Source of the DNA: a virus
Taxonomy: Duplodnaviria; Heunggongvirae; Uroviricota; Caudoviricetes
Direction: 5' to 3' (one strand)
IMG/VR virus record: IMGVR_UViG_2693429733_000017
DNA length: 5,271 bases
Positions 39 to 4,981 of the stretch are shown here, one piece after another. The notes beneath the pieces were generated by a model. That model did not search any database. It was not told the origin of the DNA and saw only the letters and a list, made by a program, of their open reading frames with translations. Every line of letters starts with the position of its first letter. The first letter of the stretch is position 1. A program made the translations under genes and the position numbers.

Positions 39-386
39 CTACTGTGTTTCTGTTAGCCATTGTCCGGCGGCTTTTTGCTGGGTAATGCTTGCCTGCACCT
101 CTCTGGCTGATCTTTGCCAATATTTAGAAGTTAAGAGGAGGTCGTCCGCTAAATCTTCCAGACGACTACCGATCTGTGCGTCGGTATAGCCCTTTTTCAC
201 CATTCCGTTGACAGCTTTTGAAATTAAACCAGCAGAGTTATTGGCAAAGTCTTTCAAATCCTTTTTAGTTAAGAATCCTTCATTCATTAAAGTGTTAATA
301 CCAGAATCACCGCCCTTCCATATGCCTTTCCCTGTTTTCTTATCAACTACATATTCAGCCTCGTCATAGCTTTTGGTAGCGCGTTC
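39..386 (-). pseudogene. 3' fragment of an unidentified protein-coding gene, N-terminal part removed by the IS911 insertion
   Basis: Minus-strand frame is open from the IS911 left end (386) to a stop at 39-41; the listed 82-aa ORF (39..287) is its internal-Met part. No family recognised from the ~116 aa remaining. Confidence 0.4.
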
Positions 387-422
387 TGAAGTGGCACACT
401 GAATTTGGCCACCTGAACAGAG
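387..422 (+). repeat. IS911 left terminal inverted repeat (IRL)
   Basis: TGAAGTGGCACACTGAATTTGGCCACC at 387 onward pairs imperfectly with the reverse complement of the right end (TGAAGTAGTCAACAAAAACTGGCCACC). Confidence 0.7.
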
Positions 423-458
423 GTGATATGCTCACCTCAGAACAACACAGGTGCTCCA

Positions 459-1635
<1,177 letters not shown>

Positions 1636-1706
1636 CCCTTGCTGGACTTGAACCAGCGACCTGGCGATTATGAGTCGCTCGCTCTGACCAACTGAGCTAA
1701 AGGGCC
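1636..1706 (-). tRNA. tRNA with anticodon CAT, tRNA-Ile2 (lysidine, AUA-reading) type, 3' end truncated by IS911
   Basis: Reverse complement reads GGCCCTTTAGCTCAGTTGGTCAGAGCGAGCGACTCATAATCGCCAGGTCGCTGGTTCAAGTCCAGCAAGGG. It folds as a cloverleaf (D stem GCTC/GAGC, anticodon loop CTCATAA, T stem GCTGG/CCAGC, T loop TTCAAGT). The 5' acceptor strand GGCCCTT needs AAGGGCC, but only AAGGG is present before the IS terminus. Resembles E. coli ileX/ileY from memory. Confidence 0.75.
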
Positions 1707-1895: not shown

Positions 1896-2450
1896 TCAAA
1901 AAGCAATAACTTTTTTCTCTATACCAAAAGCCATAACCATTGGTTTGTACAAAATAAATTCTGCCACCTTTAGCCAATGCTCAATGCGTCTTTCACAGGT
2001 TCTTAAACTCCATTTCGGGTGTGCATCATTCAGCAGTTCAGCCATTTTGCGTTTGGTCATCCCCCGCCCCTCATACCGTTGCCGAAGGACGCTAATCAAT
2101 CCTGGATGCTCTGCCAGCACCTCACTTATGACCCGATCAATACATAACGCCTCTGCATCAGTACAATGCGCCAGCCAGCTCTTTTGCTTACCGTTAATCA
2201 TATCCCGCAAAAAAGCCTCAAGTTCAGACTTGTTCAGACCTGCTTTTTTCATCCTCCGGAGCGCCTCGTTAATTGCCGTTTTTGTCAGCTTTTTAGAGGT
2301 CAACATCAGGTTAAACATATTCCCCGTCTTACCGCCACCAATATACGACCAGCGCCCCCACATACGTAGTTTTCCCTGAATCCAGACACTTTCCAGCGTG
2401 GTGAGACGAAGGTGTTCTCCGCTTTTTCCTGTATTCGTTGGGTAAATCAT
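1896..2450 (-). CDS. Putative phage late-gene antitermination protein Q (Q-like)
   Basis: ATG at 2450 with strong SD (AGGAGG, 7-nt spacer); 184 aa MIYPTNTGKSGEHLRL... Shares motifs (WG.W, LxTSKxK, GMT) with my memory of DLP12/933W-type Q. Sits immediately after the YbcO-like gene and before terminator and tRNA, the Q position in lambdoid phages. The listed longer ORF to 2570 overlaps the upstream gene and lacks an RBS. Confidence 0.55.
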   Translation of the reverse strand: MIYPTNTGKSGEHLRLTTLESVWIQGKLRMWGRWSYIGGGKTGNMFNLMLTSKKLTKTAINEALRRMKKAGLNKSELEAFLRDMINGKQKSWLAHCTDAEALCIDRVISEVLAEHPGLISVLRQRYEGRGMTKRKMAELLNDAHPKWSLRTCERRIEHWLKVAEFILYKPMVMAFGIEKKVIAF

Positions 2451-2737
2451 AAATATCCCTCCTTTCTCCAGATTTCTTGTGTGCGAAAAACACCTTCTGC
2501 ATGCATCAGGCGTAATTCTTCTTTGGTGTAATCGCTGGTTTTTACCCGCCCGTCGATTAAATCGTGGCACGAGCTACAGGCAATCGCTGCCTGCATATCG
2601 TGTGGCTTTATCGCTGTTCCGCACGTTCCCGCCAGTCGGTAATGCGCCAGCACAGACGTTTCCGGATCGTGATTGCAGTAGCCAGGAATTCTGACGGTGC
2701 ACATCTGCCCCCGCGCCGCTTTACGTAAATCCACCAT
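2447..2737 (-). CDS. YbcO-like phage protein (DUF1364-type, putative Zn-binding nuclease)
   Basis: 96 aa MVDLRKAARGQMCTVRIPGYCNHDPETSVLAHYRLAGTCGTAIKPHDMQAAIACSSCHDLIDGR...; four-Cys pattern and overall similarity to DLP12 YbcO as I recall it. SD GGAG 8 nt upstream. Start overlaps the upstream stop (TAATG), stop overlaps the Q start (ATGA). Confidence 0.7.
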   Translation of the reverse strand: MVDLRKAARGQMCTVRIPGYCNHDPETSVLAHYRLAGTCGTAIKPHDMQAAIACSSCHDLIDGRVKTSDYTKEELRLMHAEGVFRTQEIWRKEGYL

Positions 2738-3336
2738 TACGCAAACTCCAGCAGCTGCGCGGCCACATTTTCGACTTGTTCCGGAGAGGAAAATTTACGG
2801 AACAGAATCCAGTTCCACAGCACATTCAGAACAGATTTATAAACCTGCTGAAACTCGGTTTCGTCCATATTCGCAAACGCGATAGATTTCGCCCGACACC
2901 CACGGCTACCGTCCGGATAAAAATGCTCGGTGTAAAATCCGGCCTGAATGGCTACCCACTCGCGGAAAGCCTCAAACGACTTTAGCAATGCCGTATCACT
3001 GGTTCTGCGTGTCGCAACTGTATTCAGATATTGCTCTGCGGCTTCGCTCAGAGCTGGCGTATGTTCCCGGCCTACTGATTCACACAGGTAATCAACGAAA
3101 CCGGACACCAGTTTTCGTTCGCGAGGCGTGATCGCCCCACCGACCGGAGTCCAGTAATCGAAACCCAGTTGCAGGAGTTTGAAAAAACGCTTGTGGAATG
3201 CGTAGTTACACACACGCTTAAAGTCTGCGTGTATCCACTCACCTATTTTGATTTGATGCAGAAAATCGCAACTCTCCGGCGTCGCCGGGAGAAGTAATCC
3301 GGAAGAGGTTTGTTTGACCAGTTGTATATGTGCCAT
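2737..3336 (-). CDS. YbcN-like phage protein (DUF1367-type, assigned from memory)
   Basis: ATG at 3336 with SD GGAG 7 nt upstream; 199 aa MAHIQLVKQTSSGLLLPATPESCDFLHQIKIGEWIHADFKRV... The listed ORF start at 3378 is a TTG overlapping the upstream stop with no SD. Confidence 0.55.
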   Translation of the reverse strand: MAHIQLVKQTSSGLLLPATPESCDFLHQIKIGEWIHADFKRVCNYAFHKRFFKLLQLGFDYWTPVGGAITPRERKLVSGFVDYLCESVGREHTPALSEAAEQYLNTVATRRTSDTALLKSFEAFREWVAIQAGFYTEHFYPDGSRGCRAKSIAFANMDETEFQQVYKSVLNVLWNWILFRKFSSPEQVENVAAQLLEFA

Positions 3337-3374
3337 CGGCTTTCTCCGGTGGCACGGTGTTACACAGCAGGAGT

Positions 3375-3662
3375 TCAATCCTGCTCAAGATTGTAGATGA
3401 GTTTATTCTTCAGCAAAAGCAGAAAACCAGCCTTAAAACCAATCTCTTTCAAAACCCGTAATGATGTGACAAATTCGTCCTCACGCAAAATAAAACCGTC
3501 CGTCAGAAGTCCATTACAAAAATAAAATAACACAGCACCGCTCTTCCTTTGTTGAGATTGCAAACATCTAATGCGGCAATGGCTGACAATCGCTCCATTC
3601 TCAACGCGCACAGCATAGAGGCCATTTTCACTAAAAATTTCACGCAATTCTTCGATTTTCAT
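3375..3662 (-). CDS. Hypothetical 95-aa protein, first gene of the nin-like operon, function unknown
   Basis: ATG at 3662 preceded by GGAAGGA; 95 aa MKIEELREIFSENGLYAVRVENGAIVSHCRIRCLQSQQRKSGAVLFYFCNGLLTDGFILREDEF... No family recognised. Occupies the position of rem in the Qin prophage (hokD-rem-ydfU-quuQ), as I recall that map. Confidence 0.5.
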   Translation of the reverse strand: MKIEELREIFSENGLYAVRVENGAIVSHCRIRCLQSQQRKSGAVLFYFCNGLLTDGFILREDEFVTSLRVLKEIGFKAGFLLLLKNKLIYNLEQD

Positions 3663-3743
3663 CTTCAGAATCCTTCCAGATAAATAGCTCTCCCCTGTTC
3701 GGGGTCCATCCCTCTTCTCCCTGCGCGCTACTTAAGTGAGTCG

Positions 3744-3771
3744 ATTCTATCTGCGAAGGTGCGCGAATCAA
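3744..3771 (-). promoter_or_regulatory. Candidate sigma70 promoter for the 95aa-YbcN-YbcO-Q operon
   Basis: Minus strand TTGATT (plus 3766-3771), 16-nt spacer, TAGAAT (plus 3744-3749), about 80 nt upstream of the ATG at 3662. Confidence 0.3.
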
Positions 3772-3789: not shown

Positions 3790-3833
3790 ACAAAAAACCC
3801 GCCGAAACGCTGAGAGATCACAGCGATGGGCGG
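3790..3833 (-). terminator. Rho-independent terminator at the 3' end of the hok mRNA
   Basis: Minus-strand RNA has stem CCCGCC...GGCGGG (plus 3798-3803 / 3828-3833) with a nested CGCTG/CAGCG stem, followed by UUUUUU (plus A-run 3792-3797). Confidence 0.6.
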
Positions 3834-3839
3834 GTTAAG

Positions 3840-3911: not shown

Positions 3912-4067
3912 TTACTTCCTGGATTCGTAGTCTACGAAGACAGCGACCTCCGTCTGGCCGGTTCGGATTCGTACCTCACAGAGGTCTTTCCTCGTTACCA
4001 GTGCCGTCACTATGACGGTTAAACAGATGACGATCAGGGCGATTAACATCGCCTTTTGCTGCTTCAT
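3912..4067 (-). CDS. hok: Hok-family type I toxin (small membrane peptide), closest to HokD/RelF and HokC/Gef
   Basis: 51 aa MKQQKAMLIALIVICLTVIVTALVTRKDLCEVRIRTGQTEVAVFVDYESRK, near-identical over most of its length to E. coli HokD/HokC as I recall them. ATG at 4067. Confidence 0.85.
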   Translation of the reverse strand: MKQQKAMLIALIVICLTVIVTALVTRKDLCEVRIRTGQTEVAVFVDYESRK

Positions 4068-4124
4068 AGCCTGCTTCTCCTTGCCTTTCGGCATGTAAGA
4101 GGCTAACCTACATGTGCAAAGCAT
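3912..4124 (-). CDS. mok: Mok-like in-frame upstream extension of hok (modulation-of-killing reading frame)
   Basis: ATG at 4124 with GAGG 8 nt upstream; 19-aa extension MLCTCRLASYMPKGKEKQA in frame with hok, the same arrangement as mokC/hokC in E. coli K-12. Confidence 0.55.
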   Translation of the reverse strand: MLCTCRLASYMPKGKEKQAMKQQKAMLIALIVICLTVIVTALVTRKDLCEVRIRTGQTEVAVFVDYESRK

Positions 4125-4188
4125 GAAATTGGCCTCAGATTAATGTTAAGCGTCTTGCCGGACGCGTAATGTTAACTGGGGCTTTTCT
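4117..4188 (+). ncRNA. sok: Predicted Sok-like antisense RNA (boundaries approximate)
   Basis: Plus-strand candidate promoter TTGCCT (4081-4086), 17-nt spacer, TAACCT (4104-4109). The transcript would be antisense to the mok start and SD (4122-4136), then an imperfect hairpin at 4141-4174 and a U-rich tract at 4182-4190. Architecture only; no direct homology confirmed. Confidence 0.3.
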
Positions 4189-4225
4189 CTATCTGCCTTT
4201 TGGTGTTCATGCCTGAAGCAGATAG

Positions 4226-4240
4226 CCTCAAGCACCCGCA
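4226..4240 (-). promoter_or_regulatory. hok mRNA 5' tac-like element, pairs with the 3' fbi-like element
   Basis: RNA 5' region GCGGGUGCUUGAGGCU...; complementary to the 3' element at 3840-3855. Confidence 0.45.
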
Positions 4241-4294: not shown

Positions 4295-4981
4295 TCACTC
4301 CTTCTCTTCTTTACCGTAGTGGAGTTGACCAATTTTGATAAGAGGGCGTCCCTGAGATTTGCGGTGTAGATTGGTATCGCGCAGAGAATACACACAGCCA
4401 CAATATTCCTGCTGATAGAATTTTTCGCGCTTGCTGATTTCAATCATACGGGACGAGCCGCCCTGCTTGCGCCAGTTATAATCCCAGTACACCATGCCCG
4501 GATAATGCGCGACGGCTCGCCGCCCACAGTCGTTAACCTGCTGCATATTTTTCCAGCGTGAAATGCCCAGTGAACTGCTGATCACACTGAAACCATTTTC
4601 AGCGGCGTACAGCGCCGTCCGCTCAAAACGCATGTCAAAACACATGGTGCAACGGATCCCTCGTTCGGGCTCCCATTCCATTCCTTTGGCTCGTTCAAAC
4701 CAGTTGTCTGTGTCGTAATCAGCATCAATAAACGGCACGCCGTGTTGTTCAGCAAAGCGAATATTCTCATCCTTACGAATTAAATACTCTTTCTGAGGAT
4801 GAATGTTCGGGTTGTAGAAAAAGATGGTGTAGTCGATTCCCGAGGCCTGAAGCGCCTCCATCACCTCACCGGAACATGGAGCACAGCAAGAGTGCAGTAG
4901 TAGTTTGTTTGCCCCGTTTGGGAGCTCCAATTTGGGCCGTTTGAAATCAGCAACTGTCATAAATATGTTTATTGGGGTCAT
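4295..4981 (-). CDS. queH: QueH-like protein (DUF208 family, putative epoxyqueuosine reductase or related Fe-S enzyme)
   Basis: 228 aa with [48 protein letters not shown] and a C-terminal [10 protein letters not shown] Cys motif, all typical of QueH/DUF208 as I recall the family. Start uncertain: ATG at 4981 or 4960, neither with a clear SD. Confidence 0.8.

Follow-up and report, generated by a model that had tools for sequence, protein, structure and literature searches.

What is encoded by the 95-codon reading frame that heads a string of genes in a lambdoid prophage? The frame lies in a 5,271-nt stretch of Caudoviricetes DNA (IMG/VR virus record IMGVR_UViG_2693429733_000017), the whole of which we refer to as the window. 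A first-pass annotation, made from the sequence letters and a list of open reading frames, had not recognised the family of the encoded protein and had pointed to toxin, immunity, or anti-defence functions as candidates for genes in this region. The gene call itself is borne out. The ORF list places the 95-codon frame at 3375–3662 on the minus strand, with ATG at 3662 and TGA at 3377–3375, and the good start context that had been proposed is present as well: in the window sequence (minus strand) the ATG is preceded by CTGGAAGGATTCTGAAG, which contains the Shine-Dalgarno motif GGAAGGA at a spacing of 8 nt, and this motif is kept in four of five aligned loci. Likewise, the frame does head a gene string, with genes for DUF1367, YbcO, and DUF1133/Q-like proteins following on the same strand and a terminator-like hairpin and a promoter-like site lying upstream (table 1). 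Among 53 distinct homologous loci, the numbers of variable sites at codon positions 1, 2, and 3 are 41, 29, and 61, respectively, of 78 each, and dN/dS between the window gene and its E. coli K-12 counterpart, rem, is 0.19. Because of this codon-position pattern and the low dN/dS, we conclude that the window frame is a real gene under purifying selection.

The family that had not been recognised is Rem. It is represented in Pfam as PF27490 ("Rem"), phage records name the gene rem, and the K-12 homolog has been characterised (PMC10448788). In a BLASTP comparison covering residues 1–80, the window protein is identical to Rem of the K-12 Qin prophage (b1561) at 54 of 80 positions (68%; E = 2e-34). 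This is a clear match to a well-characterised phage protein, the finding that the first-pass annotation had itself set against its reading. The database protein that is identical to the window protein (P0001) carries a precomputed PF27490 match, as does every one of the 77 homologs found in a large protein database, and in PHROGs the window protein is matched by phrog_340 ("unknown function"; E = 6e-20). No significant match was obtained with our local copies of Pfam-A and NCBIfam, and the local Pfam-A is silent presumably because that copy predates the PF27490 model. Using tblastn, we found the matching gene to be named rem in 15 annotated phage records, including those of mEp460_ev081 and the PPompW phages, and one of the 15 labels it "prophage antirepressor". 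The exact 95-aa sequence corresponds to Q32IS6_SHIDS, for which the RefSeq label is still "hypothetical protein", and this allele is present on at least 999 contigs from Shigella sonnei, dysenteriae, flexneri, and boydii.

The core motif of the family (G.vL.Y..G...GF.LR.DEFVTSL..L.E...AG) is present in the window protein, and all invariant Rem columns (L45, F57, L59, E63, V65, S67, and G79) are kept. The family is small, as a profile search of 1.84 billion representatives returned 60 proteins at E of 1e-3 or less. Distant relatives with a length of 56–99 aa retain the C-terminal core alone (G.vL.Y..G...GF.LR.DEFVTSL..L.EA.kAGL). The short relatives P0132 and P0136 were considered as Gifsy antirepressors, and this assignment was rejected, given that in annotated phages they matched nothing but rem genes and an ORF without annotation in a Klebsiella phage. 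A search for a solved relative of the Rem fold found none, and prediction gives a fold that starts with an N-terminal helix and continues in beta-strands. In BFVD, Rem matched a "YwqK-like antitoxin" with a probability of 0.99 but a TM-score of 0.46. Separately, positions ~5–46 of the Rem profile (its N-terminal half, a beta-hairpin) match multiple repeats in very long proteins (P0123, which is 3023 aa, as well as P0135 and P0147), which suggests that this half resembles a common beta-hairpin repeat.

Table 1. Positions of the features discussed in the text within the 5,271-nt window; residue ranges refer to the 95-aa window protein.
Feature	Position	Strand	Evidence or remark
IS3-family element	~386–1635	+	Two ORFs, 423–761 and 788–1627
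tRNA, anticodon CAT	1633–1706	-	3' end abuts the IS3-family element
DUF1133/Q-like antiterminator	1896–2450	-	Pfam, E = 4e-107
YbcO	2447–2737	-	Pfam, E = 8e-45
irsA/DUF1367 homolog	2737–3336	-	Pfam, E = 3e-95; immediately downstream of rem
rem coding sequence, frameshifted allele	3375–3662	-	95 aa; ORF list, K-12 similarity, PF27490, dN/dS
Rem core	Residues 1–80		
Alternative-frame tail	Residues 81–95		LLLLKNKLIYNLEQD
Ancestral rem stop codon TAA, now out of frame	3403–3405	-	Repaired translation and alignment
Frameshift site	3423–3426	-	T4 run, T5 in intact alleles; codons 80–81; single-base gap relative to L004 (DNA alignment)
Shine-Dalgarno motif GGAAGGA	3671–3677	-	8 nt 5' of the rem ATG
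Highly conserved leader block	3703–3732	-	AGTAGCGCGCAGGGAGAAGAGGGATGGACC; 30 nt, -70 to -41 from the ATG
Sigma-70-like promoter candidate for rem, TTGATT-16-TAGAAT	3744–3771	-	Consensus scan
hok 3' terminator-like hairpin, CCCGCC...GGCGGG plus T-run	3792–3835	-	Separates hok from rem; sequence and alignment
hok	3912–4067	-	Upstream of rem
sok	4062–4237	-	Rfam, 117 bits
Promoter-like site of hok/sok	4273–4244	-	
QueH, epoxyqueuosine reductase	4295–4981	-	Pfam, E = 2e-65; between replication genes and hok

The window protein differs from other family members in its length. Most Rem homologs have a length of 86 aa and terminate in ...KAGFSAF(E/A)(D/E)E. Where intact alleles read GGTTTTTCTG, the window DNA reads GGTTTTCTG, and restoring one T at 3423–3426 yields an 86-aa protein that is exactly P0003, ending in ...KAGFSAFAEE. 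The window protein equals P0003 up to residue 80 and then continues as LLLLKNKLIYNLEQD, so that the short acidic tail conserved in the subfamily (SAFxEE/DE) is absent and 15 unrelated residues stand in its place. The 95-aa length is not ancestral and is the result of a 1-nt deletion after residue 80. Compared with K-12 Rem, the tail of which is SAFSGE, the window copy has this 15-residue frameshifted tail and, in addition, four extra residues (QSQQ) in the loop that follows residue 34. The acidic tail is a feature of the Rem subfamily that is not common to distant relatives, and across the wider family the tail beyond AG[FL] is variable in both length and sequence. A second frameshifted form, 92 aa long, was observed in the K-12-type lineage (P0044, P0045, and P0093). 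We compared the DNA encoding this form (L098, 340–440) with that of L003 (4630–4720) and the window (3360–3470) and found another 1-nt deletion, which is located in an A-run 9 nt upstream of the T-run site and leads into the same alternative frame. The T-run and A-run deletions are independent events.

Upstream of rem lies a complete-looking hok/sok type I toxin–antitoxin locus (3912–4237, minus strand), and beyond it QueH, a tRNA-modification gene that is prophage cargo. The terminator-like hairpin at the 3' end of hok has a 23-nt insertion in its loop relative to K-12, Rac442, and L004, and, its loop exceeding 8 nt, it escaped a simple hairpin scan. In the direction of the irsA homolog, the order of elements is the hok terminator-like hairpin, TTGATT-16-TAGAAT, the leader, and rem. 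In K-12 Qin, rem is likewise found just 3' of hok and upstream of late regulator genes; however, it is followed there by ydfU (DUF968) and a different Q, whereas in the window it is followed by DUF1367, YbcO, and DUF1133. Further downstream, a tRNA gene abuts an IS3-family element that we take to be IS911-like, and the near-identical prophage L001 has four tRNAs annotated Ile, Arg, Thr, and Gly at the same site, and the element appears to have displaced or interrupted a tRNA cluster downstream of Q. At 1793–1880 on the minus strand, just 3' of the Q-like gene and where the leader RNA of a Q-dependent late promoter would be expected, Rfam gave weak matches, below threshold, to isrK (19.9 bits) and Trp_leader (23.1 bits); these matches are probably due to chance, or else mark a distant relative.

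How the expression of rem is controlled was addressed through the region between the hok hairpin and the start codon. The -10 element of the candidate promoter is kept in all five aligned loci, and the conserved block begins there, whereas the -35 element distinguishes the window, which has a TTGA match, from the K-12 upstream region, which has none. Among the 53 distinct loci, conservation is 0.0–0.75 upstream of about -90, 0.90 at the -10 element, and 0.88–0.98 from the leader into the rem coding sequence. The leader block has a mean heterozygosity of 0.047, as compared with 0.074 at codon position 2 of rem in the same loci, and its majority fraction is 0.97–0.98. Each rem locus has exactly one copy, the flanks contain no other, and no palindromes were found in the block; being single-copy and without palindromes, it was rejected as a repeated operator. 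A structured leader RNA was also rejected, as the MFE z-score reaches only -1.9 and a block this invariant leaves no covariation to be seen. A leader peptide starting at ATGGACCCC was rejected in turn because neither length nor frame of this uORF is conserved: it has 3 codons in K-12 and 14 in the window, and it is in frame with rem in P0049. We found no LexA box (CTGT-N8-ACAG with at most one mismatch) near rem, whereas the same pattern retrieved the perfect box upstream of Gifsy-1 dinI that served as a positive control, and SOS control of rem was rejected on these grounds. The leader block is a candidate control element for Rem production or, alternatively, may be a recombination linker at a mosaic boundary. 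A search for primary papers on rem regulation after 2023 found no further one.

The co-occurrence analysis across prophages that the first-pass annotation had proposed links canonical rem to repressors of the DicA type. For this, another 90 rem loci were taken with flanks of 10 kb from genomes in IMG/VR and GTDB and scanned by tblastn. Of the loci that encode a canonical acidic-tail Rem, 38 extend at least 8.1 kb upstream, and in 37 of these a DicA-type repressor of 127–138 aa is encoded 3–8 kb upstream of rem on the opposite strand. The window stops inside or just past QueH, short of the immunity region, and near-identical prophages with a DicA-type repressor include L001, L018, L023, and others. 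L001, which is 99.9% identical to the window over 1 kb, carries DicC-like and YdaT genes as well as a gene for a 135-aa repressor with 62% identity to DicA; in related prophages, the type of 135-aa DicA repressor lying upstream of rem is the same as in K-12 Qin. Among loci with the frameshifted allele, 6 of 12 have a clear DicA-type repressor within 10 kb, and in some of the remainder the immunity region is present but has diverged or been swapped. Some frameshifted copies may be orphans in decaying Shigella prophages. Two loci with the frameshifted allele (L010 and L014) encode, at the repressor position ~4.8–5.1 kb upstream, an HTH protein that is only 29% identical to DicA, which amounts to an immunity-region swap beside an otherwise conserved rem module. 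In a further variation, a 127-aa database protein (P0106) joins, in frame, ~48 N-terminal residues of DicC to Rem starting at ~residue 5, and it would be a deletion that places Rem under the DicA-repressed dicC promoter.

We then compared the identity matrices of Rem and DicA for 43 distinct Rem/DicA pairs and found them to be uncorrelated (Pearson 0.056; Mantel 144/2000). Co-variation of Rem with the DicA immunity type was, therefore, rejected; within the largest Rem cluster, each of the four DicA types occurs as a partner. The four types have different N-terminal HTH regions, a common CSPTW[IL][LM]FGDEDK segment, and a near-invariant C-terminal LP.SEQ...RARV.NFN.LF.E.L.AR segment. Because Rem variants do not co-vary with the four immunity types, the sequence comparison suggests that Rem likely contacts the conserved linker and C-terminal part of DicA. 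Such a contact agrees with the cross-reactivity of the Gifsy antirepressors, which can target heteroimmune repressors (PMC3121763) and whose tolerance in this respect parallels the missing co-variation of Rem and DicA. An alternative reason for the absent correlation is recombination that shuffles the modules.

For the activity of the family we draw on the literature on its homologs, in which antirepressor activity is described for K-12 Rem and the binding mechanism for GfoA and GftA of the Gifsy phages. K-12 Rem was found by PSI-BLAST starting from GfoA of Gifsy-1 and FsoA of Fels-1, and PSI-BLAST intermediates are the sole link between these proteins in that study (Ragunathan et al., J Bacteriol 2023, PMC10448788). 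Ectopic expression of K-12 Rem raised dicBp-lacZ activity 165-fold and caused filamentation and growth arrest, which require dicB/dicF or the Qin prophage; derepression that arises spontaneously or is induced by urea or heat does not depend on Rem; and Rem was termed a putative antirepressor of DicA on genetic evidence (PMC10448788). In the Gifsy phages, the repressors stay undegraded (Lemire et al., PLoS Genet 2011, PMC3121763). Binding of GftA makes the Gifsy-2 repressor let go of DNA, gel-filtration sizes of GfoR and GfoA fit an A2B2 complex, and DicA and RacR have been placed in the same repressor group as the Gifsy repressors (PMC3121763). Over 80 residues, we find 37.5% identity between GfoR and DicA, and the targets of the Gifsy antirepressors and of Rem belong to the same class of short, non-cleavable DicA/GfoR-type repressors.

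The genomic position of rem also corresponds to that of the Gifsy antirepressor genes. The Gifsy unit has the order terminator, LexA box/promoter, dinI, antirepressor, irsA (PMC3121763), and Gifsy-1 irsA (STM2620) is 53% identical to the window DUF1367 gene. GfoA, GftA, and GfhA (of Gifsy-1, -2, and -3, respectively) thus occupy the same slot as rem, after a terminator and a promoter and directly 5' of irsA. However, the Gifsy antirepressor genes are LexA-controlled with dinI as the first gene, whereas rem has no LexA box, has hok with its own terminator upstream, and is not accompanied by dinI. Searching all Gifsy-1 and Fels-1 ORFs with a broad Rem profile that includes distant relatives, we obtained no match with the Gifsy-1 ORF between dinI and irsA, which is the gfoA position, and a match with a Fels-1 ORF (L097 3494–3730; STM0898.2n; E = 2e-6). 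This match covers the Rem core (profile residues ~36–84), with ~30% identity over 40 residues. fsoA has been mapped between STM0896 and STM0897 (Lemire et al. 2011, PMC3121763), and the matched ORF sits at this position. FsoA resembles Rem in being a small protein that is not LexA-controlled but differs in lacking the N-terminal helix and hairpin of Rem and in being encoded not upstream of irsA but in the left operon of Fels-1, which is controlled by the CI-like repressor FsoR. The same logic, in which the repressor is inactivated by binding and not by cleavage, applies to Tum of phage 186, AntC of N15, and Ant-type proteins such as P22 Ant (PMC3121763). Tum and AntC differ from rem in being LexA-controlled, the sizes and domains of Tum, AntC, and the large Ant-type proteins differ from those of Rem, and the window protein did not match any other domain family in Pfam or NCBIfam. 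P22 Ant is a large protein with domains of its own.

We consider it highly probable that the window rem encodes a Rem-family antirepressor that acts by binding on non-cleavable repressors of the DicA/GfoR type, and that the frameshifted allele probably still binds the repressor. By homology, window Rem would bind the repressor dimer, the bound repressor would release its operators without being degraded, and the early lytic promoters of the Qin/Rac-like lambdoid prophage would be derepressed as a consequence. Because there is no dinI gene and no LexA box, the trigger for rem would be something other than the SOS response. The gene is a self-contained module, in which an invariant leader and the coding sequence follow a -10 element of its own. 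Family membership, the frameshift, and synteny were computed here, as were the purifying selection and the linkage of rem to DicA-type repressors; from these and the homolog literature, we infer that the window allele is active, that Rem shares the Gifsy binding mechanism, and which part of DicA is contacted.

The frameshift raises the question of whether this copy is still functional. The rem gene of the window could be a pseudogene, an inactivated remnant in which the frameshift abolishes antirepressor activity and which is kept passively in an IS-ridden, uninducible Shigella prophage. The loss of the subfamily-conserved acidic tail would fit this, as would the presumed IS911-like element ~1.7 kb away within the window and the half of the frameshift-allele loci without a clear DicA-type repressor, and the independent 1-nt deletion of the K-12 lineage, having the same effect, fits repeated loss or selection against a toxic expressed gene. 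Nevertheless, the ORF is still open, with 80 of 86 ancestral residues intact and all invariant core positions among them; the allele has hardly decayed any further on its 999 or more contigs in four Shigella species (P0002 is 98% identical); and the candidate promoter, leader, and Shine-Dalgarno motif are all intact. Moreover, C-terminal additions are tolerated in related systems, since 3xFLAG tags at the C-terminus left GftA and FsoA unimpaired (PMC3121763). We, therefore, regard an inactivated remnant as rather unlikely, though to be reckoned with. Because the invariant core is spared, the tails of the wider family are variable, and C-terminal tags are tolerated, the analogy makes the frameshifted allele more likely active or attenuated than dead, and window Rem is probably still able to bind the repressor, possibly less effectively.

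The toxin, immunity, or anti-defence role put forward in the first-pass annotation would make rem an accessory (moron) gene unrelated to repressor control. The region between the replication genes and Q does host accessory genes here, with hok/sok and QueH just upstream, and overproduction of Rem is growth-inhibitory in K-12 (PMC10448788); however, that toxicity is abolished altogether once dicB and dicF, or Qin, have been deleted (PMC10448788), no PADLOC family matched the window protein at E of 1 or less, and both the linkage of canonical rem to DicA-type repressors in 37 of 38 loci and the slot shared with the Gifsy antirepressors speak for a role in repressor control. An accessory role is very improbable, and because the K-12 toxicity vanishes on deletion of dicB/dicF or Qin, we conclude that Rem is a lysis–lysogeny regulator rather than a toxin. 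Even harder to credit is an action of Rem on RNA as an Sm/Hfq-like protein instead of on a repressor. It would be in line with the predicted N-terminal helix followed by beta-strands and with a weak NCBIfam match to TIGR02383 (residues 38–70; E = 0.12), but this match falls far below the cut-off and comes without structural support, and the Hfq/Sm resemblance was rejected.

The window gene is already explained as rem, and it occupies the conserved slot for antirepressors in a lambdoid prophage of the Qin/Rac-like kind; its family is already known, being named in Pfam and having a type member that was characterised in 2023. The minor new points are the Shigella-wide C-terminal frameshift and its parallel event, the absent co-variation of Rem and DicA, the absence of SOS control despite a Gifsy-like position, and the invariant leader. 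It is conceivable, although we give this proposal a low probability, that the leader and the recurrent 1-nt deletions that rewrite the tail constitute an unrecognised control layer, in which the leader senses the inducing signal and the frameshifted tail is an attenuated allele that has been selected and lends stability to lysogeny or to cryptic prophages in Shigella.

For annotation, the analysis turns a widespread "hypothetical" protein of Shigella and E. coli into a Rem-family antirepressor with a frameshifted C-terminus. The absent co-variation of Rem and DicA predicts cross-talk between heteroimmune prophages. For switches built on DicA-type repressors, rem fills the slot of the Gifsy antirepressors without SOS control, and the invariant leader is a concrete place to seek the signal that induces it.
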